Origin: Planifilum fimeticola
Lineage (GTDB): Bacteria > Bacillota > Bacilli > Thermoactinomycetales > DSM-44946
Direction: 5' to 3'
Length of the DNA stretch: 32,000 nucleotides
Assembly (NCBI RefSeq): GCF_003001905.1
Contig: NZ_PVNE01000006.1
Coordinates: 81,407-113,406 of the forward strand
Shown here: one piece after another, positions 9,684-23,447 of the stretch
Layout: each line of letters begins with the position of its first letter
Numbering within the stretch: position 1 is the stretch's first letter
Made by a program: the position numbers and the translations under genes
The notes under the pieces: model-generated
Seen by the model: the letters and a program-made list of their open reading frames with translations, nothing else
What the model was told of the DNA's origin: nothing
Database searches by the model: none

Positions 9684-9738
9684 TTAAGTTTTTGTGGCTT
9701 TTTTCCCCGGAAGGTTGATCTTTCTTTTCGCAGGGAGC

Positions 9739-10998
9739 ATGATGAAAAAAAGGACGAGGGGAGGAGGGGCGTATCACATGCCGAGGTTTATTGTCCATGT
9801 TTCCTTCCTGTTTTTCTCGCTGGTGGCTTTAACCGGGGTTTGGATGCGCTTTTACCCCTTTGCCACCGGGACCTCCATCCCTTATCCCCACGTGCTTCAC
9901 GCCCACTCCCACTTCGCCCTGCTGGGTTGGGCCTTTTTGGGAGGCTTCGCGGTTTTTCTTCACATCTTCTGGCCGCGCATTCACCGAAAAAAGCAGGCTA
10001 TCCTGGCGGTTTCGGCATTGGCCGGGATTTCCCTGGCGATGTTGGTCGCCTTCTTGTATCAGGGTTACGGGCCGCTGTCCATCGCCGCATCGACCCTGCA
10101 CATTTTCGCGGAGTACTGGATCGCATTCATGATTTACCGGACCGTCCGGCAGAACCCCGCCTTTTCCGGCATGGGAGCGCCATTTATCAAGGGTTCCCTG
10201 ATCGCGCTCATCCTCTCTTCCGTCGGCCCCTTCTCCCTCGCTTTCATCGCCGCCCGGGGAATGAAGGAGACGCCCTGGTATGATATGGCCATCTATTTTT
10301 ATCTGCATTTCCAGTATAACGGGTGGCTCCTGCTGTTTTTGATCGGGTTGTTCATCCTTTTGCTTCGGCGGAAAGGGATTCCCTTCGCCGCCGGGGGGAT
10401 GAAGGCCGCCTTCTGGATGTATTTCATCGCATTGTTTCCGGGCTATTTTCATTCCATCCTGTGGGCGGAGCCGGGGAAATTCGTGAAGGGGCTGGCTGCC
10501 GCCGCGGGCGCGGTCCAGTTTATCGCCGTTCTCCTCCTTTTCCGGTCCTTGAGGGGAAGCCTGCGCCATCTCCGAAGGGAGTGCTCCGGACTGGTCAACA
10601 CCGGTCTCCTGTTGACGCTGCTGGCGCTCTTTGTCAAGAGCTCCCTGGAGCTGGGACTCCTTTGGCCGGACTTGGCCGCCCTCGTCTATGACACCCGGAG
10701 CGTGGTGATCGGTTATCTGCATCTGACTCTGCTGGGCGTCGTCAGCTTGTTCATCCTGGTTCAATACGGCATGGCCGGAATCTGGAAGATGGATAGACTG
10801 GCCCTGTACGGGGGCTCCGCCTTTTATGCCGGCTTTTTGTTGAATGAGCTCCTCCTGTTTTTGCAGGGGCTGGCGGAATGGACCAAGGCGGCGCAAATCC
10901 CTTTCCGCCTCGAAGGGCTTTTCCTGGCCAGTTTGATGCTCCTGGTCGGGATCGTTTTGATGTGGCGAAGCTTTGCCCGTACCGGTTCCGGGGTCTGA
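9739..10998 (+). CDS. 12-TM integral membrane protein with a thrice-repeated His motif (NnrS-like candidate, family uncertain)
   Basis: ORF 9694..10998. Candidate starts are ATG 9739/9742 (MMKKRTRGG) or ATG 9778, which has GGAGGAGG upstream. About 12 hydrophobic segments. Conserved-looking motifs are HAHSHFALLGW, YLHFQYNGW and GYLHLTLLGV at regular intervals. Confidence 0.8.
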   Translation: MMKKRTRGGGAYHMPRFIVHVSFLFFSLVALTGVWMRFYPFATGTSIPYPHVLHAHSHFALLGWAFLGGFAVFLHIFWPRIHRKKQAILAVSALAGISLAMLVAFLYQGYGPLSIAASTLHIFAEYWIAFMIYRTVRQNPAFSGMGAPFIKGSLIALILSSVGPFSLAFIAARGMKETPWYDMAIYFYLHFQYNGWLLLFLIGLFILLLRRKGIPFAAGGMKAAFWMYFIALFPGYFHSILWAEPGKFVKGLAAAAGAVQFIAVLLLFRSLRGSLRHLRRECSGLVNTGLLLTLLALFVKSSLELGLLWPDLAALVYDTRSVVIGYLHLTLLGVVSLFILVQYGMAGIWKMDRLALYGGSAFYAGFLLNELLLFLQGLAEWTKAAQIPFRLEGLFLASLMLLVGIVLMWRSFARTGSGV

Positions 10999-11537: not shown

Positions 11538-12707
11538 TTAATAGTTGACCGCCCGGTAGGCGTTGATCCGCCCTTTGCTCCAGTAGGTCCCCGTTCCGGA
11601 GATCCGGTCGGCGGTGTTTTCGATGGCCGCCCGGATTTGCGATGCACTGCGTCCCTGAGCATCCAGGAGCCCGGCCAGTCCCGCCACGTGGGGCGTTGCC
11701 ATCGAGGTGCCGGACAGGCTGGCGTAGCTGCTGCCCGTGTAGGTGGAGTAGATGTTCACCCCCGGGGCGGCGACATCCACCCAGCTGCCGTAGTTGGAGA
11801 AGGAGGCCTTGTTGTCGTTGCTGTCGGTGGCGGCGACGGCGATGGCGTTGCTGTAGTATGCCGGATAGGAGGGAAGGGACGTCCCGCTGTTACCGGCGGC
11901 GGCCACCACGACAACTCCCTTGTTCCAGGCGTAGTCCACGGCGTTTTTCAGGGTGGTGGCCCCGACCGAAGCACCCAAGCTGAGGCTGATCACGTCGGCT
12001 CCGCTGTCGGCGGCGTGGATGATCCCGTTGGCCACATCATCCAGGGTTCCGGATCCGCTGTTGTTTAACACCCGGACGGCATAGATGGTGGCGTTGGGAG
12101 CCATCCCGGCAATTCCCTGGGAGTTGTTGGTGACGGCGGCGGCGATTCCGGCACAATGGGTTCCGTGCCCGTTGCCGTCATACGGATCCCAGTCGTCATC
12201 CACAAAGTCGTAGCCCCGGACGACTTTTCCGGACAAGTCGGGATGGTCATATTGCACTCCCGTGTCAACGATGGCGATCCAGGTGTCGCTGCTGCTCCTG
12301 GTGACGTCCCAGGCAGCGGGAGCTTGAACCTTTTGGGGCCCCCACTGCCGGCTGGAGAAATAGGGGTCGTTGGGGGTCCACTGGATGGTGTAGATGTAAT
12401 TGGGCTCCGCATATTCGACGTTGGGATTCTTCTCGTATTCCTTGACCGCTTGCTCCACGGATTTGTCTTCAACCTTTACGACATCAAAGCCCAGCTTCGT
12501 GTTGCGGGAGAGGAGCTTTGCCTGCCCATCCTGGTGGGCGGTTTTCATCGCGCTGGCTGATGTGCCCTTCTTAAATTTGACAATCACCTGGTCGGGGGCG
12601 TAAGCCGGCTTGTCCGCCTGAACGGCTGATTCGGCCCCGGCGGCTTGGGGTTGAATCAGGACGATAGCCAGCACCAGCGAGGCGACGATCGCCAACAATC
12701 GCTTCAT
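11538..12707 (-). CDS. secreted S8 subtilase, thermitase-like (paralog A), with signal peptide and I9 propeptide
   Basis: ORF 11538..12743. ATG at 12707 (MKRLLAIVASLVLAIV signal peptide) with AGGAGG upstream. Catalytic triad contexts IAIVDTGV, HGTHCAGIAAA and GTSMATPHVAG. The mature region closely resembles remembered Thermoactinomyces thermitase (YTPNDPYFSSRQWGPQK...GTYWAKGRVNAY). Confidence 0.93.
   Translation of the reverse strand: MKRLLAIVASLVLAIVLIQPQAAGAESAVQADKPAYAPDQVIVKFKKGTSASAMKTAHQDGQAKLLSRNTKLGFDVVKVEDKSVEQAVKEYEKNPNVEYAEPNYIYTIQWTPNDPYFSSRQWGPQKVQAPAAWDVTRSSSDTWIAIVDTGVQYDHPDLSGKVVRGYDFVDDDWDPYDGNGHGTHCAGIAAAVTNNSQGIAGMAPNATIYAVRVLNNSGSGTLDDVANGIIHAADSGADVISLSLGASVGATTLKNAVDYAWNKGVVVVAAAGNSGTSLPSYPAYYSNAIAVAATDSNDNKASFSNYGSWVDVAAPGVNIYSTYTGSSYASLSGTSMATPHVAGLAGLLDAQGRSASQIRAAIENTADRISGTGTYWSKGRINAYRAVNY
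11662..11801. repeat. 140-nt near-identical tract shared with 13469..13608 (paralog conversion tract, copy 1)
   Basis: Hand alignment at a constant offset of 1807 nt shows one mismatch (11734 C vs 13541 T) in 140 nt. Confidence 0.9.
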
Positions 12708-12990
12708 AGAGGCATGACCTCCTCTGGAAGTGGGTTTTATCATTCACCCCGGAGGGGGAATGAACGGAGCATGAACGGGTTTTCCCGACGGCGGACGAAC
12801 GGGAACTGTCGAAACCGTGTTGTCATTTCTTGAGCAGATCGTGGAAGCGAGCCGGTGGTAGGGAGGGGGTGCTGGTCCATGGAGGCGATGAGGAGAGCAG
12901 CGGAGGTGAACCGATCGTGAGGGTGGTGATGGGATGTGATGATGGACGTCGGGATGGAAATCTTTAAATGCCAATCAAATTCCAACAATT

Positions 12991-13344: not shown

Positions 13345-14520
13345 TTAATAGTTGACCGCCCGGTAGGCGTTGATCCGCCCTTTGCTCCAGTAGGTGCCCG
13401 TTCCGGAAATCGGGTCGGCGGTGTTTTCGATGGTCGCCCGGATTTCCGAAGCGCTACGACCCTGGGCGTCCAGGAGCCCGGCCAGTCCCGCCACGTGGGG
13501 CGTTGCCATCGAGGTGCCGGACAGGCTGGCGTAGCTGCTGTCCGTGTAGGTGGAGTAGATGTTCACCCCCGGGGCGGCGACATCCACCCAGCTGCCGTAG
13601 TTGGAGAAAGAGGCTTTGCTTTCATCGCTGTCGGTGGCGGCGACGGCGATGGCGTTGCTGTAGTACGCCGGATAGGCCGGTTGAGAGGAGCCGTCGTTAC
13701 CGGCGGCGGCCACCACGACAACCCCCTTGTTCCAGGCATAGTCCACGGCTTCCTTCAGGGTGATGGAATCGTTGGGGCTGCCCAGGCTGAGGCTGATCAC
13801 GTCGGCTCCGTTGTCGGCGGCATGGATGATTCCGTTGGCTACATTTTGCAGCGTGCCGGAGCCGCTGTCGTCCAGTACCCGGACGGCGTAGATTTTGGCA
13901 TCGGGAGCCATCCCGGCAATTCCCCGGGTGTTGTTGGTGATCGCGGCGGCGATTCCGGCACAATGGGTTCCGTGCCCGTTGCCGTCATAGGGGTCCCAGT
14001 CGTTGTCGACGTAATCGTATCCCCGGACGACTTTTCCGGACAAGTCGGGATGGTCGTATTGCACTCCCGTGTCAACGATGGCGATCGAGGTGTTGCTGTC
14101 GCTTTTTGTCACATCCCAGGCGGCGGGAGCCTGGACCTTTTTGGGCCCCCACTGCAGATCGGGGAACAGGGAGTCGTTGGGCGTCCACTGGGTGGTGAAA
14201 ATGTAGTTGGGTTCCGCGTATTCGACGTCGGGGGACTTTTCATACTCCTTAATCGCTTCTTCCACGGACTTGCCCTCGATTTTCACCACGTCAAAACCGA
14301 TCTCTTTGTTGTGGAAGAGAAGATCCGTGTCCAACTCCAGATGGATGTTCAGGGTCAAACGGGGCTCGGCGTTTTCCTTGAATTTGACGATGACTTGATC
14401 AGGTGCGTAGGATAGCTTGTCCGATGAGCCTTCTTTTTCGGCTTCCGCGCCGGCCGATGGCGGATGGATCAAAACGAACGCCATGAATAGGGCGGCGGCC
14501 ATTTTCCACAAGCGTTTCAT
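13345..14520 (-). CDS. secreted S8 subtilase, thermitase-like (paralog B)
   Basis: ORF 13345..14553. ATG at 14520 (MKRLWKMAAALFMAFVL) with AGGAGG 6 nt upstream. Same D/H/S motif contexts as paralog A. The C-terminal residues GTGTYWSKGRINAYRAVNY are identical. Confidence 0.93.
   Translation of the reverse strand: MKRLWKMAAALFMAFVLIHPPSAGAEAEKEGSSDKLSYAPDQVIVKFKENAEPRLTLNIHLELDTDLLFHNKEIGFDVVKIEGKSVEEAIKEYEKSPDVEYAEPNYIFTTQWTPNDSLFPDLQWGPKKVQAPAAWDVTKSDSNTSIAIVDTGVQYDHPDLSGKVVRGYDYVDNDWDPYDGNGHGTHCAGIAAAITNNTRGIAGMAPDAKIYAVRVLDDSGSGTLQNVANGIIHAADNGADVISLSLGSPNDSITLKEAVDYAWNKGVVVVAAAGNDGSSQPAYPAYYSNAIAVAATDSDESKASFSNYGSWVDVAAPGVNIYSTYTDSSYASLSGTSMATPHVAGLAGLLDAQGRSASEIRATIENTADPISGTGTYWSKGRINAYRAVNY
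13469..13608. repeat. 140-nt near-identical tract shared with 11662..11801 (copy 2)
   Basis: See copy 1. The two genes are tandem, with an 1807-nt period measured stop codon to stop codon. Confidence 0.9.
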
Positions 14521-14807
14521 GCGATACCTCCTCCGGGAAACCCTTTCGTTCATCCCTACGCAATGGAATGGGGATTTAAGGACTTGAAAAGAAATAAAAG
14601 ATTTCTATCAAATAGAAAAACGTATGGAAGTACCGGCGGGTTTCGGGATCGATATTGGTATCTTATTCCGTTTTGTCTGAGCGGGGCGCGGAAAGGGGGG
14701 TTGGATGAGGAGGGCGGCGTTTTGGGATTTACAAAAAGGAACCTGATTTTCCAAACGGCGGTGTCGCGCCGGTGGAAAACCGGTTCCCGATCACAAATTC
14801 GGCCATG

Positions 14808-15821
14808 TTATTCGGTCACTTTGAGGAGGGCGACCGCTCCTTTTTGGGCGTGATGGAACTGGTGAGTCACGATGGGATAGATCCCCGCCTCTTTGACGGT
14901 GAACTCCACCACCGCTCCGCCGCTTGCCGGCAGCATGACGGTTTGCATGCCCCTCAAGCGGTTGTCGGGGTTTCCATCCCGGTACACGTCATCAAATACG
15001 GTTCCGACGACGTGGAACGAGCTCACGTGGTTGGGGCCGACGTTGTTTACGTAAATGCGGATTTTTTCCCCGACTTTGGCTTCCAGGGGCTTCTCTTTCA
15101 GGCTGTAGGTGGTGCCGTTGGTATTGGGATCTCCCTTTTTCAGGGCCTTGGTGGAGAAGACCACGTAATCGGGCTGGCCGTCGGTCATGTCATCCAGGTT
15201 GTTGTTGGCGTACCATTCGTTCTGGATCAGGGTGAATTCGCGGTCCACCTGTGGGTCGGTGGGATAGCCGTCCTTCGGCTTCACGATAATCACGCCGTGC
15301 ATGCCGTTGGCGATGTGCTGAAGCACCGGATCCGTTCCGCAATGGTACATGAATACCCCCGGACTGCTGGCCTGATAGGTGAAGGTTTTACTCCGATTGG
15401 GCGCGATGTTGATGAACTTCTTGGATGGAGCCGCGTGGACGGCGTGGAAGTCCATGCTGTGGGGCATCGCGGGGTCAAGGTTTTTCAGGGTGAATTCTAT
15501 CGTGTCTCCTTCCCTGACGACGATGAGGGGGCCGGGAGCTTGCCCGTTGAAGGTCCAGGCCTTGTAGGTCACTCCCTTGTCGATTTCGATGTCGGTCACT
15601 TGGGCGGTCATTTCGACTTTCACCCGATGAGCGCTTGTTCGCTCGATTTTGACGGGGGTGGGTTTCTGGTTGACGTCGCGGTGGGCGGGCATCACTTGAT
15701 TCGCGGCATGGTCCGGAGAGGCGGTTTTTTCGGCGATGTCCGACTCGGAGGGGCTTCTGCAACCGGCCAACATACCGGCGGCGAGGACGACCGACAGAAG
15801 GGCGACGAAGGTTTTGTTCAT
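14808..15821 (-). CDS. nirK: copper-containing nitrite reductase NirK, lipoprotein form
   Basis: Signal peptide plus lipobox (LAGC). Cupredoxin domains with type-1/type-2 Cu ligand contexts HSMDFH, YHCGTDPVLQHIANGMHG and HQFHH. 337 aa. AGGAGG SD at 15836-15831. Confidence 0.9.
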   Translation of the reverse strand: MNKTFVALLSVVLAAGMLAGCRSPSESDIAEKTASPDHAANQVMPAHRDVNQKPTPVKIERTSAHRVKVEMTAQVTDIEIDKGVTYKAWTFNGQAPGPLIVVREGDTIEFTLKNLDPAMPHSMDFHAVHAAPSKKFINIAPNRSKTFTYQASSPGVFMYHCGTDPVLQHIANGMHGVIIVKPKDGYPTDPQVDREFTLIQNEWYANNNLDDMTDGQPDYVVFSTKALKKGDPNTNGTTYSLKEKPLEAKVGEKIRIYVNNVGPNHVSSFHVVGTVFDDVYRDGNPDNRLRGMQTVMLPASGGAVVEFTVKEAGIYPIVTHQFHHAQKGAVALLKVTE

Positions 15822-15837
15822 CGCACACGACCTCCTC

Positions 15838-15855
15838 TTGTGATATTATTCACAA
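15838..15855. promoter_or_regulatory. perfect Fnr/Crp-type palindrome TTGTGATATTATTCACAA in the nirK leader, abutting the SD
   Basis: TGTGA-N6-TCACA with flanking TT/AA symmetry. It ends 2 nt upstream of the nirK SD complement. Confidence 0.6.
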
Positions 15856-15900
15856 TTAGATTCAGGGGATAAAGGTTTATTTATAGCCCCTTTCGCCTTC

Positions 15901-15943
15901 ATCATAATTGAAACAATCAGCCTTATTGTGATACAGGACACAA
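15901..15943 (-). promoter_or_regulatory. nirK class-II-like promoter: box TTGTGATACAGGACACAA plus a -10 TATGAT
   Basis: Box at 15926-15943 (TGTGA-N6-ACACA, centre 15934.5). Reverse-strand TATGAT at 15906-15901, 28.5 nt from the box centre. Confidence 0.55.
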
Positions 15944-15984
15944 ATCCGCTTTTTCGTTACAAATCTTTCGAAGATTGGTCTTGA

Positions 15985-16010
15985 TAAAAAACCCGCGGAC
16001 ATGCCGCGGG
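15985..16010 (-). terminator. rho-independent terminator after the qNor gene
   Basis: Reverse strand: CCCGCGGCATGTCCGCGGG hairpin followed by TTTTTTAT. Confidence 0.8.
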
Positions 16011-16032
16011 AAGAAACGGTGACATCGGTTTT

Positions 16033-18369
16033 TTATTTGATGGAATCTCCGTCCTTCACGGTGGAGGGACGCAGGCGGAAGAGCGATTTGACGGCGAACC
16101 ATGCCAGTGGCAGCACGCCGAAGACGATGAAGATCGTGTCGGGAAGGATGCGCCACCACAGCAGCGTCCGAACGACGGGTTCCTGGTAGAATCCGGGGTC
16201 GCGGGCCGCCCAGAACCCGACCTGATAGGATTCGGCCAGCTGCAGGATTCCGACGGGGAGCAGCGTGATGAGAATCATGCCCGCCAAGCCGATGTTGAGC
16301 CCCCAGCAGGAGATCTTGAGGATGCGGTCGTTCCAGGCTTCCGGCTTGACGATGTTGCGCAGGGTGTAGAGCAAGACGGCGACGGCGAACATGCCGTAGA
16401 CCCCCATCAGCGCTCCATGGCCGTGGGCCGGTGTCAGGAAGGAGCCGTGCTGATAGTACGACACCGCCGGGAGATTGATCAGGAAGCCGAGCACCCCTGC
16501 GCCGACGAGGTTCCATACGGCCGTGGAGATGAGGAACCAGAAGGCCGCCCGGTACGGAAAGGATACGCCGCCCTGTTTCATGATCCGGTAGTGTCCGTAG
16601 GCTTCCAGGATGAGCAGCGTGAGCGGGATCACTTCCAGCGCCGAGAACACCGCGCCGAGGCCGATCCAGATCTCCGGGGCGCCGATCCAGTAATAGTGGT
16701 GACCGGTTCCGATCACCCCGCTGCCGAGCAGGAGGATCAGCTGGAAGTACAAGGCGCGAACCGTCGATTTTTTGGTGACGAGCCCCATCTGCACGAGCAG
16801 GAAGCCGATGACGACGACGGCAAAGACCTCGAAGATGCCCTCCACCCACAGATGGATGATCCACCAGCGCCAGTAATCGGCGTAGGTGATGTTGCTGCCG
16901 GGGTTGAAGAAGAAGGCGAAGACGTAGAAGACCGGCACGGCGACGGCCGAGTAGAACAACAGGTGCACCAGGCCGCCCTTGTCCGTTTCCTCTTTCAACG
17001 TGCGGCGCAATCCGCGGTAGACGATGAACAGCCAGATGAACATGCCGATGGCCAGAATCACTTGCCACAGGCGTCCGAGCTCTAGATACTCCCATCCCTG
17101 ATGGCCAAACAGGAACCACAGGTTGCCCAGGTATCCCTTCACACCCAGCCATTCGCCGATCATGCTGCCGGCGACCAGGATCACGAGGGCCCAAAACAGG
17201 AGGTCCGTCAGGAGACCCTGCCGTTTCGGCTCGCGTCCTCCGACGAGCGGAGAGATGTAAATTCCCATGCCCAACCAGGCTGTCGCGATCCAAAAGATGG
17301 CCAGCTGCAGGTGGTATCCCTTGGCGATGTTGAAGGGGAGGATGTCGGCGATCCAATCCAGGCCGAAGAAGGAATCCGGTTCAATGTAATAGTGGGCGAG
17401 CAGCGCCCCGAACATCACCTGGACGAGGAACAAAACCGCCACGACGGCGAGATATTTGCCGGTTTTGCGCTGGCTCGGGGTGATCGGCAGGGCTTCCAGG
17501 TTGTAGCGTGGGAATCGGCCTTCGGAGTAGGCCTCTTGCATATCCAGCTTGTAGCGATGGTAGAAGTAGAGGATGAGCGCAGTGAAACCGATCAGGAGGG
17601 CCGTGCTGGCTGCGCTCCACCAGATGGATGCGAAGGTCATCGCGTTGCCCGCATCTTCGTCATAGGGCCAATTGTTCGTAAAAGTATGGGTTTCGCCCGG
17701 GCGGTTGACGCTGGAAAGCCATGCGGTCCAGAAGAAAAAGTCGGCGATTTGCGTCAGCTGATCCCCCTCCGCCACCCAGGCGCGGCCGGTATCCGGCATG
17801 TGCTCTTCCCGGATCAGGCCCGGCAGAATCCCGCGTCCATCCCCCTCCGTGAAGACGGTTCGGTAGTGCTTTCGCACCTTCTGAAGGGCGTGTACCTGGG
17901 CGTCGGTGAGAGTGAGGATGTCGGCATCGGGATCGTACCGGTTGACCTTGATTTCTTCTTTCACCTTTTCTCTAATGAGGGATTTTTCCGATTCGTTCAA
18001 CCGGGCGAAGGGCTTTCCAAAATCCTGTTTGGCATGGTAATCCTGCATCTCCGTGACGACGATGTGAAGCGCCTCCGTGGTGTAGTCCGGACCCAGATAG
18101 GAACCGTGACCGAGCACCGATCCGTAGTCCATCAACCCGTATTTCTGGTAAACGGCCTGACCGCCCTTGATCTGCTCGGCGGTGGTGATCACGTCTCCCG
18201 AGGGGCTGATCACCTTCGCAGGGCGGGGGGCCATCGATTCATAAACCCAATATCCCCCGACGAGGAGGACGGTGAAGCTGACGATGAGCGTGACGATCAG
18301 AATCTGCTTCAACAGGTTCCCCTTAACCGTCGAGGTTTTCTGAGGGGATGTTCGAAGCTTCGATTTCAT
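16033..18369 (-). CDS. norZ: quinol-dependent nitric oxide reductase (qNor, single-subunit NorB/NorZ type)
   Basis: 778 aa. An N-terminal TM segment plus a periplasmic extension is fused to a 12-TM heme-copper-oxidase-like core with many conserved His (HGHGALMG, HHYYWIG, IIHLWVEG). The length fits qNor rather than the 450-aa cNor NorB. SD GGGAGGA lies 7 nt before the ATG at 18369. Confidence 0.9.
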   Translation of the reverse strand: MKSKLRTSPQKTSTVKGNLLKQILIVTLIVSFTVLLVGGYWVYESMAPRPAKVISPSGDVITTAEQIKGGQAVYQKYGLMDYGSVLGHGSYLGPDYTTEALHIVVTEMQDYHAKQDFGKPFARLNESEKSLIREKVKEEIKVNRYDPDADILTLTDAQVHALQKVRKHYRTVFTEGDGRGILPGLIREEHMPDTGRAWVAEGDQLTQIADFFFWTAWLSSVNRPGETHTFTNNWPYDEDAGNAMTFASIWWSAASTALLIGFTALILYFYHRYKLDMQEAYSEGRFPRYNLEALPITPSQRKTGKYLAVVAVLFLVQVMFGALLAHYYIEPDSFFGLDWIADILPFNIAKGYHLQLAIFWIATAWLGMGIYISPLVGGREPKRQGLLTDLLFWALVILVAGSMIGEWLGVKGYLGNLWFLFGHQGWEYLELGRLWQVILAIGMFIWLFIVYRGLRRTLKEETDKGGLVHLLFYSAVAVPVFYVFAFFFNPGSNITYADYWRWWIIHLWVEGIFEVFAVVVIGFLLVQMGLVTKKSTVRALYFQLILLLGSGVIGTGHHYYWIGAPEIWIGLGAVFSALEVIPLTLLILEAYGHYRIMKQGGVSFPYRAAFWFLISTAVWNLVGAGVLGFLINLPAVSYYQHGSFLTPAHGHGALMGVYGMFAVAVLLYTLRNIVKPEAWNDRILKISCWGLNIGLAGMILITLLPVGILQLAESYQVGFWAARDPGFYQEPVVRTLLWWRILPDTIFIVFGVLPLAWFAVKSLFRLRPSTVKDGDSIK

Positions 18370-18407: not shown

Positions 18408-18453
18408 AGTATAGGATGAGACGGAAGGGATACTTGTGACTCCCGTCACAAGT
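18408..18453 (-). promoter_or_regulatory. qNor class-II-like promoter: 22-bp palindrome ACTTGTGACTCCCGTCACAAGT plus a -10 TATACT
   Basis: TGTGA 18435-18439 and TCACA 18446-18450 (centre 18442.5). Reverse-strand TATACT at 18413-18408, 29.5 nt from the centre. Confidence 0.65.
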
Positions 18454-18502
18454 TTTAACGTGTTAACCGATTTGACACTTGTTGTTCAAGGATGACGCCC
18501 CG

Positions 18503-18546
18503 GATTTGACACAATTCACAGTCGGGCTCGCAGGTACGCTTACAAT
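18503..18546 (+). promoter_or_regulatory. promoter of the LpdD-like gene: box TTTGA-N6-TCACA plus a -10 TACAAT
   Basis: GATTTGACACAATTCACAGT (18503-18522, centre 18512.5). TACAAT at 18541-18546, 28.5 nt from the centre. Confidence 0.5.
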
Positions 18547-18630
18547 GGCAGAGGACCCCGGCTGCGCCTTCTTCAGGATGAAGGGGGAACCGACGCCGGA
18601 GTTGCGATTGTCTGTGGAGTAAAGGTCGGG

Positions 18631-19005
18631 ATGGTCGGGAGGTGTTGGTGCTTGGTGACTCGTCCGATCCGCATTCGCCTGCGCACCGTTCCGGTGGGAA
18701 CCGATCTCGCCGTGTTGATCACCGGCGGTCGGGAGCACATCGGGGCGGTGGCCACGGCTTATCGGGAGGGGGACCGGGTCAAGGTGGAAACGCACGTCCT
18801 TCCGGGGCATCGGGAGGGGGATTTGGCGGCGGAGACGGCCCGCATGGCGGCTTTATCCCTGAAATGCACCGTCACCGTTGCCATGGGGATTCACCAGGAC
18901 GAGGCGACGCGGGAGGAAATCGACGAGATCGTCAGGACGGTGCGCCGGTTGATGGAAGAAGAGCTGAGGCGCAGAGCATGTGGAGGGGCGGAGGGGCGTT
19001 CATGA
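18631..19005 (+). CDS. small LpdD-like / PAC2-fold-like protein (family assignment from memory, uncertain)
   Basis: ORF 18631..19005. An alternative TTG start at 18652 lies 7 nt after GGAGGTG. DLAVLITGGREHIGAVATAY and TVAMGIHQDEATREEIDEI resemble the remembered LpdD pattern (DLLIVVTGG..PHIG.V ... GIH...I). Confidence 0.6.
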   Translation: MVGRCWCLVTRPIRIRLRTVPVGTDLAVLITGGREHIGAVATAYREGDRVKVETHVLPGHREGDLAAETARMAALSLKCTVTVAMGIHQDEATREEIDEIVRTVRRLMEEELRRRACGGAEGRS

Positions 19006-19095
19006 CGGGAGAGCAGGAGATATCTTCCGGGAAGGGAGACGGGAGCCGTCGCTTTCGTTTCGCCTGCCTTCCTGTTTTCATCGGGATTCGCGCCG

Positions 19096-19139
19096 GTGTG
19101 ATGTTCGTCACGTTTTTCGTGGCGCCTCCTTCCTAAAAT
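19096..19139 (+). promoter_or_regulatory. hemerythrin-gene class-II-like promoter: box GTGTGATGTTCGTCACGT plus a -10 TAAAAT
   Basis: TGTGA 19097-19101 and TCACG 19108-19112 (centre 19104.5). TAAAAT at 19134-19139, 29.5 nt from the centre. Confidence 0.6.
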
Positions 19140-19169
19140 AAAGGCAAACGAGACAAGGAGGGAAGGGTG

Positions 19170-19715
19170 ATGGATATCGGACCCGGCTGTGGGATGATGG
19201 GTTTCGCTGAAGCCTCCGGTCCCCTCTGCGCAGGCTTGGAACGGTTGAAAAGAGAACACCCGCCGCTTTTGAAGCAGATGGAGGAGTTGGCGGATTCGGC
19301 CCGAGGGTTCGCTGGCGATGCCGGAAGCGGGGGATGGAAGGAAGCCCTGCGCTCCCTGGAGGAACAGGTTCGTTCCTTCACGGCCGAGTTGGATCTCCAC
19401 TCGAAGCGGGAGGAAGATGTCCTGTTTCCGATGATGGCCAAATATATCGGACGGGAGACGGGGCCCATCGCCGTGATGGAATACGAACACGAGCAAGCCA
19501 AGGCGCGCCTGTCCGAGTTCCTCTCCGAAGTGGAGAAGTTCGACGAGTCCGCCGGGGCGGATGCCGCCCGGAGGATCGCCGGTGAGGTGGAGACGGCCGT
19601 GCAGATCTTGACGGACCATTTTATGAAGGAGGAGAACGTGCTCTTTCCGATGGCGGAGCGCATCCTGTCCGATGCGGAAAAGGAAGAGCTTCTGGAGAGG
19701 GTTCAGGCGATTTGA
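19170..19715 (+). CDS. hemerythrin/HHE cation-binding domain protein (DnrN/ScdA/YtfE-like di-iron protein)
   Basis: ATG at 19170 lies 8 nt after AAGGAGG. Repeated H..E motifs (LKREHPPLL, LHSKREEDVLFP, MEYEHEQA, LTDHFMKEENVLFP) are typical of the hemerythrin HHE domain. Such proteins are commonly linked to NO stress and denitrification loci. Confidence 0.8.
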   Translation: MDIGPGCGMMGFAEASGPLCAGLERLKREHPPLLKQMEELADSARGFAGDAGSGGWKEALRSLEEQVRSFTAELDLHSKREEDVLFPMMAKYIGRETGPIAVMEYEHEQAKARLSEFLSEVEKFDESAGADAARRIAGEVETAVQILTDHFMKEENVLFPMAERILSDAEKEELLERVQAI

Positions 19716-19724
19716 CTGCAAGGA

Positions 19725-19766
19725 AAGCGGCGCATGCCGTCGAGGATGCGCCGCTTCAATTTTTTG
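19725..19766. terminator. terminator between the convergent hemerythrin and fnr genes
   Basis: AAGCGGCGCAT / ATGCGCCGCTT stem with a 10-nt loop, then CAATTTTTT. Confidence 0.7.
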
Positions 19767-19784: not shown

Positions 19785-20495
19785 TCAGATGATACATACG
19801 TTTCCGGGGCAGCGGCCGTCACAGTGGCACAGCTTTCGGAGGCGGTTCAGATCGTGGATGATCAGCCTGCCGGACCGCATGCTGAGGATGTGTTCCCTTT
19901 TCATCCGGCTCAGCATGCGGTTGACGCTTTCCCGGGTGGCGCCGATGAAGTTGGCCAGATCCTGGTTGGTCAGCCGCATGGGGATCAGGATGCCCTCCTC
20001 CGTCCTTTTGCCGCAGGTGTTGCAGAGGCGGATCAGGGTGGAGGCGAGCGCCCCGGTTTTGCCGTATACCAGGAGATCGCGCATTTTGGTCTCCAAAATC
20101 CGCTGGTTGACGGTGAGCCACTGGATGAACCGGATGGCCAGGTCGGGGTGGCGGAGCAGCAGGGCCTCCAATTCCTCCTTGTGGATGACGCCGAGGAACG
20201 CATCCGTCAAGGTGACGGCGTTGCTCCACTGGAAGGGGGACGGGAGCGTGCAGGGATCACCGACCAGGTCTCCGGCGTACTTGAGGGAGAGCGCGATTTC
20301 CTCCCCGCTTTCGGTGTTGTTGAAGATCTTGACGATCCCCTCATGGATGAAGTAGAGATAATCGGCTTGTTCTTTGTCCTGGAACAAGTTGATGCCGCTG
20401 TTCACCCTTTTGGAGGTCATCAGTGAGCTCAACCGCTTCAGCTGCTCCGGTTGGAAATAGTCGACAAACCGATGGGCGGACACCGCGGAAGTCAT
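19785..20495 (-). CDS. fnr: Crp/Fnr-family regulator, Bacillus-type Fnr with a C-terminal Cys cluster
   Basis: ORF 19785..20633. ATG at 20495 lies 7 nt after AGGAGG. cNMP-binding-like domain, an HTH (TNQDLANFIGATRESVNRMLSRM) and a C-terminal CHCDGRCPGNVC motif. This recalls the C-terminal [4Fe-4S] ligands of B. subtilis Fnr. Confidence 0.85.
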   Translation of the reverse strand: MTSAVSAHRFVDYFQPEQLKRLSSLMTSKRVNSGINLFQDKEQADYLYFIHEGIVKIFNNTESGEEIALSLKYAGDLVGDPCTLPSPFQWSNAVTLTDAFLGVIHKEELEALLLRHPDLAIRFIQWLTVNQRILETKMRDLLVYGKTGALASTLIRLCNTCGKRTEEGILIPMRLTNQDLANFIGATRESVNRMLSRMKREHILSMRSGRLIIHDLNRLRKLCHCDGRCPGNVCII

Positions 20496-20549: not shown

Positions 20550-20594
20550 ACTGTGATATTTGTCACGATGAAGGGGTGAGTCCTGGGTTACGAT
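20550..20594 (+). promoter_or_regulatory. ywiC-like gene promoter: box CTGTGATATTTGTCACGA plus a -10-like TACGAT
   Basis: TGTGA 20552-20556 and TCACG 20563-20567 (centre 20559.5). TACGAT at 20589-20594, 29.5 nt from the centre. The box lies in the divergent fnr/ywiC-like intergenic region. Confidence 0.5.
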
Positions 20595-20656: not shown

Positions 20657-21394
20657 ATGAAACCGATCCTTCCGAGGGAACATGGCGGATGGGCCATGGT
20701 ATCCGTCCCCTTTCTCCTTGGCATGTTCGTGGGTGGGCCCAAATGGTTGCATCTTCCGCTGTTTTTCGGATGGATGCTGTTTTACCTGGCGGCCTATCCC
20801 TTCCGCCTGGCGCTGATGCGGCGGAAAGATCGGCGCAATTTTGTCCGTTGGGCGCTGATTTATTGGGCCCTGGGGATGGTTTTCCTGATCCCCCCGCTCC
20901 TTTGGGAGCCTTCGCTGTTATGGGCGGGCCCCGTGCTGGCCGCGTTGTTCTGCATCAACGGGTGGTACGCGTACCGGCGAAACGAGCGTTCCTTCGTCAA
21001 TGACCTGTGCGCCATTCTCGCCTTTTCGGTCGGCGGTGCGGCCGCCCACATGGTCGGAGCCGGGAGTTGGGACGCCATGGCCCTGTGGGTTGCGGTGCCG
21101 TGTATCCTGTACTTTTTGGGGAGCGTCTTTTTTGTCAAGTCGGTGTTTCGGGAGCGCAAAAACGAAAGATGGCTGATCGCCTCAAAGGGATATCACCTGC
21201 TGCTCCTGATCCTGACGGCTCTCCTGGAGCCCTGGTTCGTCCTGCCCTACGCTTTTTCGGCCTTCAGGGCCTTCTTGTGGGGCGGAAAGACGATCCGTCC
21301 GATGAAGGTGGGAATCATCGAGATCGTCGGATCGTTGCTCTTCCTCGTCCTTTCCATCATCGCTTTTTCCGCCACTCGTCCGCCCACGATTTGA
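20657..21394 (+). CDS. YwiC-like integral membrane protein
   Basis: SD GGAGGAG before the ATG. The N-terminus PREHGGWAMVSVPFLLG matches the remembered YwiC-like signature. About 8 TM segments. In B. subtilis, ywiC lies beside fnr/arfM/nar and is Fnr-controlled. Confidence 0.75.
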   Translation: MKPILPREHGGWAMVSVPFLLGMFVGGPKWLHLPLFFGWMLFYLAAYPFRLALMRRKDRRNFVRWALIYWALGMVFLIPPLLWEPSLLWAGPVLAALFCINGWYAYRRNERSFVNDLCAILAFSVGGAAAHMVGAGSWDAMALWVAVPCILYFLGSVFFVKSVFRERKNERWLIASKGYHLLLLILTALLEPWFVLPYAFSAFRAFLWGGKTIRPMKVGIIEIVGSLLFLVLSIIAFSATRPPTI

Positions 21395-22067
21395 GGGCTT
21401 CCACATCCTTGAGGACGATATGGTTGCGGTTCATTTCCAAAATGCGCTGGCGGCGCAAATCGTTGAGCATGCGGTTGACGCTCTCGCGGGTGGTTCCCGC
21501 CATGCTGGCCAGGTCCTGGTGTGTGACGGGGAGCCGGAGCACCACCGTTCCGTCCTGGGTTGTTCCGTGGGTTTCGGCCAGCCGCAGGAGGATGGCGCAG
21601 ATGCGGTGGCGCACATCCTGGTAGGTGAGTTCCTGCAGCTTTTCTTGCAGCTCGCGGATTTTTGCCCCCAAAACCCGCAGTACCTTCACCGCGATGGTGG
21701 GAGTGGACAGCAAAAGCTGCTCGAAGGATTGGATGGGAATCGCGAAGACGCGGGTGGGCTTGACGGCTTCGGCGTTGGCGGGGTAGGGGCTCTGATCGAA
21801 GAATCCCGTGTGGGGGAACATGTCCCCCTTGGCCAGCAGGGAGACGATCTGCTCATGTCCGTTGGCATCCACCTTAAAGGCTTTGACGAGCCCGTCGACG
21901 ATGAAATAGACGGCTTCGCGCGGGCTTCCCTCCGCGAAGATGAGCGATTTCTTCGGGTAGGAGCGCGGGATCGCGATGGAAGCGATCCGTTCCAGCTCTT
22001 CGTCGGTGAGATCCAGAAACAGCGGCACATTGCGGAGAAGAGGGACCAATTGAGACAAGTCCATCAC
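21357..22067 (-). CDS. Crp/Fnr-family regulator, second paralog without a Cys cluster
   Basis: 236 aa. cNMP-binding-like domain (LFLDLTDEELERIA...YFIVDGLVKAF) and an HTH (THQDLASMAGTTRESVNRMLNDL). It contains a single Cys. The start is ambiguous (GTG 22067, ATG 22064 or TTG 22058 relative to GAGGTG). Confidence 0.85.
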   Translation of the reverse strand: MMDLSQLVPLLRNVPLFLDLTDEELERIASIAIPRSYPKKSLIFAEGSPREAVYFIVDGLVKAFKVDANGHEQIVSLLAKGDMFPHTGFFDQSPYPANAEAVKPTRVFAIPIQSFEQLLLSTPTIAVKVLRVLGAKIRELQEKLQELTYQDVRHRICAILLRLAETHGTTQDGTVVLRLPVTHQDLASMAGTTRESVNRMLNDLRRQRILEMNRNHIVLKDVEALKSWADEWRKKR

Positions 22068-22170: not shown

Positions 22171-22218
22171 TCATGACGGAGTGTTTGGTTTCATTGTACC
22201 CCAACGATTCAGGGGAGA

Positions 22219-22262
22219 GTGTGACGAACTTCATACTGTTTTTCCAAAGACTTTGTTACGTT
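22219..22262 (+). promoter_or_regulatory. weaker Fnr-type box GTGTGACGAACTTCATAC plus a -10-like TACGTT ahead of the radical SAM gene
   Basis: TGTGA 22220-22224 and TCATA 22231-22235 (centre 22227.5). TACGTT at 22257-22262, 29.5 nt from the centre. Confidence 0.35.
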
Positions 22263-22346
22263 GTGAACAAACAGGATTTCCCGTTTCGGTCCCGCCGGGA
22301 CGGGAAAACAGGGCGTCGTTATCCCTTTCATAAGGAGGAATCCCTT

Positions 22347-23447
22347 TTGATTGACTTTCACCAATCTCCCTTTCTGGTCATCTGGGAAGTGACTCGTGCC
22401 TGCGCCCTCAAATGCCTCCATTGCCGGGCCGAGGCGCAGTATCGTCGGGATCCCCGCGAGTTGACGACGGAAGAGGGGAAAGCCTTGATTCGCGAGATTC
22501 GCGATTTGGGCGCCCCCCTGCTGGTCTTCACCGGCGGCGATCCGCTGATGCGGGAGGACCTCTTTGAGCTGGCCGAATACGCCAAAGGGCAGGGGCTGAT
22601 CGTATCGCTCACGCCCAGCGCCACCCCGCGGGTGACGGAGAAAGCGATGCGCCGGGCGATGGAGGTGGGGCTCGACCGATGGGCCTTCAGTCTCGACGGA
22701 TCGACGGCGGAGATCCATGACGCCTTCCGCGGCACGTCCGGATCCTACGACCTGACCATGCGCGCCATCGGCATGCTGCGCAAGCTCGGGATGCCGCTGC
22801 AGATCAACACCACCGTCAGTCGCTACAATCTCGACGATCTGCCCGACATTGCTCGCCTGCTCGAAGAGATGGGCATCGTGCTGTGGAGCGTCTTTTTCCT
22901 CGTGCCCACCGGCCGCGGCAAGGCGGACGACATGATCACCGCGGAGGAGCATGAGCGGGTGTTCCACTGGCTGGCCGATCTCTCCGGGCGCGTCCCCTTT
23001 GACATCAAGACGACGGCGGCGCCTCCCTACCGCCGCGTGATAATGCAGCGGGAGAAAATGAAGAGCGGTCCGGGAGCGGCGGCCGGTGCTCCTCCCTGGG
23101 TGGCCGGGCGCCAACGGCAGTTGCGGGCACCGCGCGCCGTCAACGACGGCAACGGTTTCGCCTTCGTTTCCCACATCGGCGATGTGTATCCCAGCGGCTT
23201 TTTGCCGATCGCCTGCGGGAACGTGCGGGAGCGCTCCCTCACGGAGATCTATCGGACGCACCCGACCTTTGTCTCCCTGCGCGATCCGGAGCGGCTGAAG
23301 GGAAAGTGCGGGGTGTGCGAGTTCCGTTCCGTCTGCGGGGGATCCCGGGCCCGTGCTTACGCCGTGACCGGCGATCCCTTGGAGAGCGATCCGACCTGCG
23401 CCTATGTGCCCCGGGAGTGGTCGAAGCGGGCGGCCAGTTCTTCGTAG
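22347..23447 (+). CDS. radical SAM/SPASM-domain enzyme (NirJ/AhbD-like class, exact function unknown)
   Basis: ORF 22173..23447. TTG start at 22347 lies 7 nt after AAGGAGG. CALKCLHC is a CX3CX2C radical SAM cluster motif. The C-terminal Cys-rich region (CGNVRE..., CGVCEFRSVCGGSRARAY, CAYV) is consistent with a SPASM domain. Confidence 0.85.
   Translation: MIDFHQSPFLVIWEVTRACALKCLHCRAEAQYRRDPRELTTEEGKALIREIRDLGAPLLVFTGGDPLMREDLFELAEYAKGQGLIVSLTPSATPRVTEKAMRRAMEVGLDRWAFSLDGSTAEIHDAFRGTSGSYDLTMRAIGMLRKLGMPLQINTTVSRYNLDDLPDIARLLEEMGIVLWSVFFLVPTGRGKADDMITAEEHERVFHWLADLSGRVPFDIKTTAAPPYRRVIMQREKMKSGPGAAAGAPPWVAGRQRQLRAPRAVNDGNGFAFVSHIGDVYPSGFLPIACGNVRERSLTEIYRTHPTFVSLRDPERLKGKCGVCEFRSVCGGSRARAYAVTGDPLESDPTCAYVPREWSKRAASSS

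Follow-up and report, generated by a model that had tools for sequence, protein, structure and literature searches.

A Bacillota branch of the LpdD family apart from UbiX and UbiD: an LpdD-like gene beside nitric oxide reductase in Planifilum fimeticola and its possible part in anaerobic respiration

What is a relative of LpdD, whose family has the activation of UbiD as its only published function (PMC10865409; PMC13040415), doing among genes for nitrogen-oxide respiration? The question is raised by a 32,000-nucleotide stretch of the genome of Planifilum fimeticola (contig NZ_PVNE01000006.1, positions 81,407 to 113,406), the whole of which we call the window. Here a small LpdD-like gene is divergent from norZ, the gene for a quinol-dependent nitric oxide (NO) reductase (qNor), with 282 bp separating positions 18369 and 18652, and is followed by a gene for a single-domain hemerythrin. 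A preliminary description, made from the letters alone, had placed the small protein in an LpdD/PAC-like family, seen its gene back-to-back with qNor and upstream of an HHE hemerythrin, given each gene its own Fnr-type box, found neither UbiD nor UbiX in the window, and called the association uncharacterised. All of this is borne out below; the roles that it offered—a maturation or repair factor for qNor or for the nitrite reductase NirK, or a partner of the di-iron protein—fare less well. Our own reading, whose chance we put somewhat below even, is that of an LpdD-type chaperone in a box-marked anaerobic regulon, serving nitrogen-oxide respiration independently of UbiD and UbiX.

Sequence and fold agree on the family. 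The protein matches Pfam PF21758 (PAC_bac / LpdD_chaperone) over residues 12-112 with an E-value of 2.2e-28 and 98.7 bits against a cut-off of 27, and the LpdD chains in the PDB are sequence matches as well (E 4e-4); no model for it was found in NCBIfam. An AlphaFold2 monomer model of the 124-residue form, computed from a 14-sequence alignment, has a predicted local distance difference test score of 87.5 and six strands with two helices in a PAC-like fold. In a Foldseek search of the PDB the six best matches are all LpdD entries, led by 8pzo_A (E 2.9e-8, template-modelling (TM) score 0.78; best TM 0.78-0.79), and the eukaryotic proteins PAC3/PAC4 and Pba3/Pba4 rank after them. The nearest proteins, at 62-97% identity, come from metagenomes and Hydrogenibacillus, and the family as a whole comprises 724 clusters at 50% identity. 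Some of its members carry public labels such as 'gallate decarboxylase subunit D' (JGI) or a UniRef name starting 'Prenylated flavin ch…'.

The characterized reference is LpdD of Lactiplantibacillus plantarum (lp_0272; PDB 8PO5, 8PZO, 8PZH, 8P4W), a chaperone that binds reduced prenylated flavin mononucleotide (prFMNH2) and shares PF21758, fold and size with our protein at about 20% identity over the structural alignment. Mn2+ is coordinated by its residues H35, H61 and D63, the first of which is required in vitro for the binding of prFMNH2 (PMC10865409). In the PDB alignment these residues correspond to H36, H60 and E62 of the Planifilum protein (numbering of the 124-residue form); the metal ligands are kept as His/His/Glu, with an Asp-to-Glu change, and the histidine of the GIH motif is kept too. 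The His, His and Glu are invariant in 14 family members and also in 14 Bacillota sequences, and the family alignment has 22 invariant columns. LpdD dimerises via the same interface as Pba3-Pba4 (PMC10865409). Our protein shares its fold with PAC3/PAC4 and Pba3/Pba4 (Foldseek E 3.5e-6 to 3.5e-4, TM 0.52-0.68); however, identity is only about 10% and those proteins are without the His/His/Glu site. Bacillota are not known to have a 20S proteasome, so the client should differ from that of the eukaryotic proteins.

The longest open reading frame (ORF), 18631..19005 on the plus strand (124 aa, ATG 18631), carries the motifs DLAVLITGGREHIGAV ... PGHRE ... GIH as the preliminary description had it, but the start chosen there is probably wrong. 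TTG 18652 or GTG 18655 is more likely, for a protein of about 117 aa, because a Shine-Dalgarno sequence (GGGAGGTG) stands 7 nt ahead of TTG 18652, close homologues begin (L/V)TTRP, and residues 1-10 are of low confidence in the model. The ORF is under purifying selection, with dN/dS values of 0.28-0.48 against five relatives. These values, together with the strong Pfam match, the confident model and a fitting pattern of G+C at third codon positions (GC3), rule out that it is not a gene.

Where the family parts company with UbiX and UbiD is seen in its tree. We gathered 43 loci from a scan of 185,579 species genomes and 53 from a metagenome scan, annotated them with tblastn seeds and Pfam/NCBIfam models, and built a neighbour-joining tree of 92 distinct proteins; at high-GC loci (e.g. 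L010 and L061, by our own numbering) the ORF caller chose wrong-strand ORFs, and the tblastn seeds were used there instead. Linkage to UbiX or UbiD was judged within the fetched flanks, of up to 10 kb. In the archaeal and deltaproteobacterial clades (Methanosarcinales and syntrophic Deltaproteobacteria; L007, L029-L050, L089-L101), 32 of 35 members immediately adjoin ubiX, almost always directly upstream of it, and some have ubiD close by; these organisms are strict anaerobes, and one such neighbour of UbiX is a relative at 41% identity. By contrast, UbiX or UbiD is found in the flanks of none of the 56 members of the Bacillota clade. In the window, Pfam searches of all plausible genes and tblastn with UbiX and UbiD seeds found neither. 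Going by these flanks, a Bacillota-specific LpdD branch has left the UbiX/UbiD gene context. The UbiX-adjacent homologues, although they form separate clades and have a longer Ser-rich loop of their own ahead of PGHRE, are 33-41% identical to our protein, and their GGREHIGAV, PGHRE and GIHQD loops are the same. Such unchanged loops point to a conserved biochemical core of a divalent-metal site with flexible loops.

In the Bacillota the gene keeps other company; unlike L. plantarum lpdD, it lies in nitrogen-oxide or anaerobic clusters with Fnr-type boxes. The subclade that contains the window is found among genes for nitrogen oxides or nitrosative stress, with no fewer than nine distinct arrangements. 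The order nirK-norZ<>LpdD-like-hemerythrin-fnr-ywiC-crp-radical S-adenosylmethionine (SAM) gene is found in the window, in L004 and in the Planifilum loci L009 and L010, and a metagenomic relative shows that the order of the window persists elsewhere; Hydrogenibacillus schlegelii has narGHJI-LpdD-like-narK-hemerythrin, with a 4-nt overlap between narI and the LpdD-like gene, and L053 has the same order. A RIC/ScdA gene (RIC equivalog, 271 bits) overlaps the LpdD-like gene in Brevibacillus migulae, crp overlaps it in L020, where a TIGR04053 radical SAM gene is present too, and in L061 it overlaps thiH (equivalog), with hemerythrin, ywiC and RIC next door. L015 reads hemerythrin-LpdD-like-cytochrome c-nosZ (clade II)-nosD; L014 combines the gene with narK, fnr, a PAS kinase, an FNT transporter and a truncated haemoglobin; nirK is divergent from it in L018 and adjoins it in L097 also; and in Brevibacillus humidisoli a hemerythrin gene is followed by a frameshifted LpdD-like copy. 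Truncated-haemoglobin genes adjoin the gene at L010:5931-6545 and L014:9129-9497, a further NO-related neighbour. The linkage to nitrogen-oxide genes is conserved, then, but not as a linkage to nor and nir in particular, which most members lack within 10 kb. In the searchable literature we found no description of an LpdD association with nar, nir, nor, nos, RIC or a box-marked regulon, nor of the split of the Bacillota branch from the UbiX-linked members; the family and a solved structure were already known, and the association and the split are what is new.

Boxes tie the window gene to its neighbours. The palindrome TGTGA-N6-TCACA is the consensus for Bacillus Fnr. With at most one mismatch it occurs seven times in the 32 kb, where 0.46 sites are expected and none of 100 shuffles reaches seven, and all seven sites are intergenic, at 15.8-22.3 kb, inside the nitrogen-oxide island. 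Two lie upstream of nirK, and one each belongs to norZ, the LpdD-like gene, the hemerythrin gene, the gap between fnr and ywiC, and the radical SAM gene (Table 1). The predicted transcription start of the LpdD-like gene is near 18553. The box centre would then be about 40.5 bp away, a class II activator geometry and the place where a Bacillus-type Fnr regulon would have it. On the other strand qNor has a TATACT -10-like hexamer (minus strand 18413-18408), with the box centre about 41.5 bp from its predicted start; for qNor and for the hemerythrin gene, too, the hexamer suits a class II site centred near -41.5. Comparable boxes precede the LpdD-like gene in L009/L054 and L010; the hemerythrin box is identical or near-identical in L004, L009/L054, L010 and L052, and a box precedes the Hydrogenibacillus hemerythrin gene too. 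A second conserved element, GATTTGACACTTGTTGTTCAAGG (18470-18492; kept as GATTTGACATTGGTTGTTCAACA in L052), lies between the norZ and LpdD-like boxes and could be a -35-like TTGACA or the site of another regulator.

The other Bacillota subclade, of Paenibacillus and Saccharibacillus, has a pyrK-pyrD-LpdD-like-(pspA-DUF350-DUF4178)-moeA-mobB operon, in which PyrK and PyrD exceed the equivalog cut-offs for type B dihydroorotate dehydrogenase (DHOD-B). In 23 of 28 pyrK-pyrD-LpdD-like operons a TGTGA-N6-TCACA box, often perfect, stands 50-120 nt upstream of pyrK, against a background of 0.071 boxes per kb. This suggests Fnr control of pyrimidine and molybdenum cofactor (Moco) synthesis in Paenibacillus. 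The Paenibacillus loci concerned fall in the ranges L012-L028 and L056-L088, the DHOD-B operon being a second-copy or anaerobic one. Since both subclades carry the box while their neighbour genes differ, the common denominator appears, from motif and gene order, to be a TGTGA-N6-TCACA box beside genes used without oxygen and not any one enzyme. Complete loss of UbiX/UbiD linkage, combined with repeated translational coupling to anaerobic respiration genes, speaks for a change of client and perhaps of ligand.

Domain fusions give a further view of what the family handles. Among the best 150 of the 724 cluster representatives, protein P0156 (L104:3975-5414, confirmed on the contig) joins LpdD to a ThiH/HydG-like radical SAM and BATS enzyme, and P0122 joins it to an inositol-monophosphatase-family domain; in the remaining long proteins of this set no second domain was found. 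The P0156 gene adjoins genes for a beta-eliminating lyase and another radical SAM protein. A metagenomic LpdD-like member sits between an FMN-type NMO/FabK-like gene and thiG. The fusions are suggestive of small-molecule or cofactor chemistry, not decisive; the fusion partners and the NMO/FabK-like and thiG neighbours all deal with small cofactors that carry phosphate or with metal centres that are labile, which fits a role of holding and handing over without naming the ligand.

A chaperone in a box-marked anaerobic regulon might work as follows. As oxygen falls, a nearby-encoded Fnr/Crp-type regulator would bind the box, some 41 bp ahead of the start, and turn on the LpdD-like gene with nirK, norZ, the hemerythrin gene, fnr/ywiC and the radical SAM gene. 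The protein, probably a homodimer by analogy with LpdD, would use its GGREHIGAV, PGHRE and GIH loops with the 2-His-1-carboxylate divalent-metal site to hold an oxygen- or NO-labile species—either the Fe2+ or Mn2+ ion or, with the metal as a bridge, a reduced cofactor that bears phosphate—and would pass it to enzymes made or damaged in nitrogen-oxide respiration. Its work would fall under the same kind of stress as that of the RIC-type di-iron hemerythrin, which donates iron to damaged Fe-S centres. NarJ (Moco of NarG) and SdhE (flavin) offer a parallel, as small accessory genes in or beside respiratory operons, just as the LpdD-like gene follows narI in Hydrogenibacillus; however, their folds are unrelated, and for the LpdD-like protein the hold-and-hand-over role is only proposed and the client only hypothetical.

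Several points weigh against this reading. The motifs of the binding surface are invariant between UbiX-linked and Bacillota members, down to the 22 invariant alignment columns, so that the ligand is most simply read as still being prFMNH2. L. plantarum LpdD bound prFMNH2 without metal, and bound neither FMN nor FMNH2 (PMC10865409); a pure metal-chaperone role is thus without biochemical precedent. The neighbours form a mixed set (Mo, Cu, haem/Fe, FMN, Fe-S and radical SAM enzymes) and for some Bacillota members uninformative (L055, L064, L066, L080), and the theme that they share may be only co-regulation under anoxia. Finally, this analysis of neighbourhoods and fusions did not identify a client.

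The strongest alternative is an ordinary prFMNH2 chaperone like that of L. plantarum, with UbiX and a UbiD-family decarboxylase elsewhere in the genome, and under Fnr control because the handling and maturation of prenylated flavin (prFMN) are problematic without oxygen. We consider this unlikely, though by no means negligible. Pfam, the PDB and Foldseek all lead to LpdD, the ligand-site residues and loops are those of the UbiX-adjacent archaeal homologues, and these homologues come from strict anaerobes. What serves physiologically as the oxidant when anaerobes mature prFMN is an unsolved question (PMC13040415), and L. plantarum lpdC (UbiD) itself lies far from lpdB and lpdD, the latter co-transcribed with the UbiX homologue lpdB (PMC10865409). 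On the other side stands the contrast between none of 56 Bacillota flanks and 32 of 35 UbiX-adjacent loci elsewhere. The gene is also repeatedly translationally coupled to others—narI, RIC, pyrD, moeA, thiH or crp—and the UbiD accessory described so far in some Bacillaceae is of the YclD/PhdC type, not the LpdD type (PMC13040415).

The hemerythrin next door invites a second alternative, that of a dedicated hemerythrin/RIC partner: a shuttle or docking factor by which Fe2+ would pass between the hemerythrin and Fe-S or non-haem iron centres damaged by NO. The window hemerythrin has the HHE four-helix domain of RIC/YtfE/ScdA/DnrN and resembles the RIC C-terminal domain, and like those proteins it belongs to a nitrogen-oxide-responsive regulon; however, the ScdA_N domain of RIC was not found by Pfam, and its scores of 34-54 bits across the NCBIfam RIC/YtfE/DnrN models fall short of cut-offs of 190-300 (TIGR03652, 48 bits against 204.7; YtfE, 54 against 254; DnrN, 42 against 300). 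Its homologues number 352 at E <= 1e-10, among them a fragment at 93% identity labelled Planifilum fimeticola; those with organism names are all Bacillales, and JGI names such homologues 'regulator of cell morphogenesis and NO signaling'. By sequence it is best described as a member of a Bacillales-wide single-domain subfamily distinct from full RIC. RIC proteins are NO-induced iron donors that can also hold Mn (PMC9268430), and dnrN-type hemerythrins are core members of nitrogen-oxide regulons (PMC1274295).

Six arrangements (the window type, Hydrogenibacillus, B. migulae, L015, L061 and B. humidisoli) place a hemerythrin or full-length RIC gene no more than 3 kb from the LpdD-like gene, a 2-His-1-carboxylate set is typical of sites for Fe(II) or Mn(II) and is where LpdD binds Mn2+, and iron and Mn are what RIC donates and can hold. 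Yet the hemerythrin subfamily is far more widespread than the LpdD-like gene. In three of four sampled genomes the hemerythrin gene is present and no LpdD-like gene was found nearby: it adjoins narGHJI in Geobacillus and RIC in Thermobacillus and stands alone in Laceyella; in the fourth, B. humidisoli, it precedes a decayed LpdD-like copy. This copy (L107:6727-7079) is split over three frames, as a frameshifted pseudogene or through an assembly error, and L049 (Paenibacillus sp. MAHUQ-63) has only the N-terminal half of the LpdD-like gene. The large Paenibacillus subclade is without nearby hemerythrin, and in the window each of the two genes has a box of its own, with a weak hairpin separating them. 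The LpdD-like protein and hemerythrin share a regulon and are often adjacent without forming an obligate pair, a pairing that we reject as a general rule. The partnership suggested by the preliminary description holds as frequent adjacency, and a dedicated partner seems to us rather improbable.

A third alternative starts from the nitrate reductase and Paenibacillus arrangements, and would make the protein an assembly factor that carries oxygen-labile molybdopterin or bis-molybdopterin guanine dinucleotide (bis-MGD) between MoeA/MobB and NarJ/NarG. These are reduced tricyclic pterin phosphates, loosely analogous to prFMNH2. The LpdD-like gene ends narGHJI by its overlap with narI in Hydrogenibacillus and has the same place in L053, and it stands directly upstream of moeA-mobB in many Paenibacillus, overlapping in L017, in operons that carry an Fnr-type box. 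But neither the window nor the surroundings of the RIC-, nosZ-, nirK- and thiH-linked members showed a Mo enzyme or Moco gene, the pspA cluster intervenes before moeA at many loci, Saccharibacillus has no moeA nearby, and the ligand loops are the same as in prFMN-linked members. We hold a Moco factor to be improbable.

What becomes of the gene when its reductase neighbours are lost can be read from L052, a relative at 83% protein identity. Its nirK and norZ are only short tblastn remnants (L052:1943-2815, against window 14808-18369; NirK residues 181-215 and 298-327, qNor residues 2-52), and the norZ box has been lost. Still intact are the LpdD-like gene with an identical box and the hemerythrin, fnr, ywiC, crp and radical SAM genes; the island seems to be built of modules and to decay from the reductase end. 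Persistence of gene and box after the decay of nirK and norZ indicates independence of qNor and NirK, so that a maturation or repair factor for the metal centres of qNor (FeB/haem) or NirK (Cu), as first proposed, is very improbable, for all that promoters are divergent with norZ in the window, L004, L009 and L010 and that nirK adjoins the gene in L018 and L097, given that most family members are without nor or nir within 10 kb and that others follow narI, stand beside nosZ, thiH or RIC, or lie in pyrK-pyrD-moeA-mobB operons. The conserved set of three His and a Glu may recall the FeB ligands, in a superficial way.

Table 1. Features of the nitrogen-oxide island and of the LpdD-like/hemerythrin promoters; positions are those of the window.
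Feature	Position	Strand	Evidence and remarks
Copper nitrite reductase NirK, lipoprotein signal	14808..15821	-	Cu-oxidase_2/3 domains; boxes 15839-15854, 15927-15942
Quinol-dependent NO reductase qNor/NorZ	16033..18369	-	PF22085 + PF00115
Perfect CRP/FNR-type palindrome TGTGACTCCCGTCACA, for divergent qNor promoter	18435..18450	.	0 mismatches
CRP/FNR-type box TTTGACACAATTCACA of LpdD-like gene	18505..18520	.	1 mismatch
-10-like hexamer TACAAT, LpdD-like gene	18541..18546	+	Read from sequence
Shine-Dalgarno GGGAGGTG	18637..18644	+	Read from sequence; 7 nt ahead of TTG 18652
LpdD-like (PF21758) coding sequence, ~117 aa	18652..19005	+	Pfam, PDB, AlphaFold2, Foldseek, dN/dS
Weak terminator-like hairpin between LpdD-like and hemerythrin genes	19038..19060	+	5-bp stem GACGG/CCGTC then GCTTTCGTTT; consensus match only
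CRP/FNR-type box TGTGATGTTCGTCACG of hemerythrin gene	19097..19112	.	1 mismatch
-10-like hexamer TAAAAT, hemerythrin gene	19134..19139	+	Box centre ~41.5 bp from predicted start
Single-domain HHE hemerythrin (di-iron type), 181 aa	19170..19715 (alternative start 19167)	+	PF01814 E 1.5e-22, residues 23-163
Hairpin terminator between hemerythrin and fnr	19726..19765	.	10-bp stem AGCGGCGCAT/ATGCGCCGCT, 10-nt loop, then TCAATTTTTT; read from sequence
Fnr-like regulator, C-terminal Cys cluster CHCDGRCPGNVC	19785..20495	-	cNMP_binding + HTH_Crp_2
YwiC-family membrane protein	20657..21394	+	PF14256 E 2.6e-41; syntenic in L004, L009, L010, L052, L054
Second Crp/Fnr-family regulator, ArfM-like position	21357..22067	-	Pfam; syntenic in relatives
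TIGR04053 radical SAM/SPASM protein (AhbD/NirJ-like)	22173..23447	+	NCBIfam TIGR04053 506 bits vs cut-off 395

The island spans 14.8-23.4 kb and holds the eight genes nirK, qNor, LpdD-like, hemerythrin, Fnr-like, ywiC, second Crp/Fnr and radical SAM. It is set in a window of 59% G+C with a housekeeping synteny of the bacilli type (rapZ-yvcK-whiA-crh ... clpP, sigL, cggR-gapA-pgk), and the closest genome loci to the window are a Planifilum metagenome-assembled genome and Hydrogenibacillus. From its C-terminal cysteines we infer that the Fnr-like regulator is a Bacillus-type Fnr; its ORF extends to 20633, and the box at 20552-20567 suggests a start at Met47. Between both regulators lies ywiC, which shares 38 bp with the 3' end of the second regulator gene, encoded on the other strand; in B. 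subtilis, too, ywiC lies between fnr and arfM. The box of the radical SAM gene (22220-22235) is upstream of the likely true start. The encoded protein scores 364 bits with the haem b synthase model, below the cut-off of that model, and its gene is syntenic with the crp/ywiC/fnr block in L004, L009, L010, L020, L049, L052 and L107. Just upstream of the island are two tandem paralogous genes for subtilisin-like proteases (Peptidase_S8, fervidolysin-type prodomain; 11538-12743 and 13345-14553), of which L052 has one only, and a 434-aa ORF at 9694-10998 has a gene-like GC3 (0.75) and no Pfam match.

For the family, these results mean that 'gallate decarboxylase subunit D' or a prenylated-flavin label is probably misleading for the Bacillota branch as a whole. 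With a chance that we put somewhat below even, LpdD-fold proteins are more than helpers for prFMN and, as a broader family, carry labile metals or cofactors bridged by metal, with the Bacillota branch as a hitherto unrecognised accessory factor for Nar, Nir, Nor and Nos clusters and for RIC-type repair without UbiX/UbiD; the alternative reading is an unsuspected prFMN-dependent step, or an oxygen-independent route of prFMN maturation, tied to nitrate respiration in bacilli. If the protein does bind prFMNH2, a prFMN-dependent process would be switched on by anoxia, which could bear on how prFMN matures without oxygen. If ligand or client differs, it would be a new accessory factor for Gram-positive denitrification and nitrate respiration, whose assembly and repair after NO damage are poorly known, and the LpdD fold would be a general module for handing over cofactors or metals.

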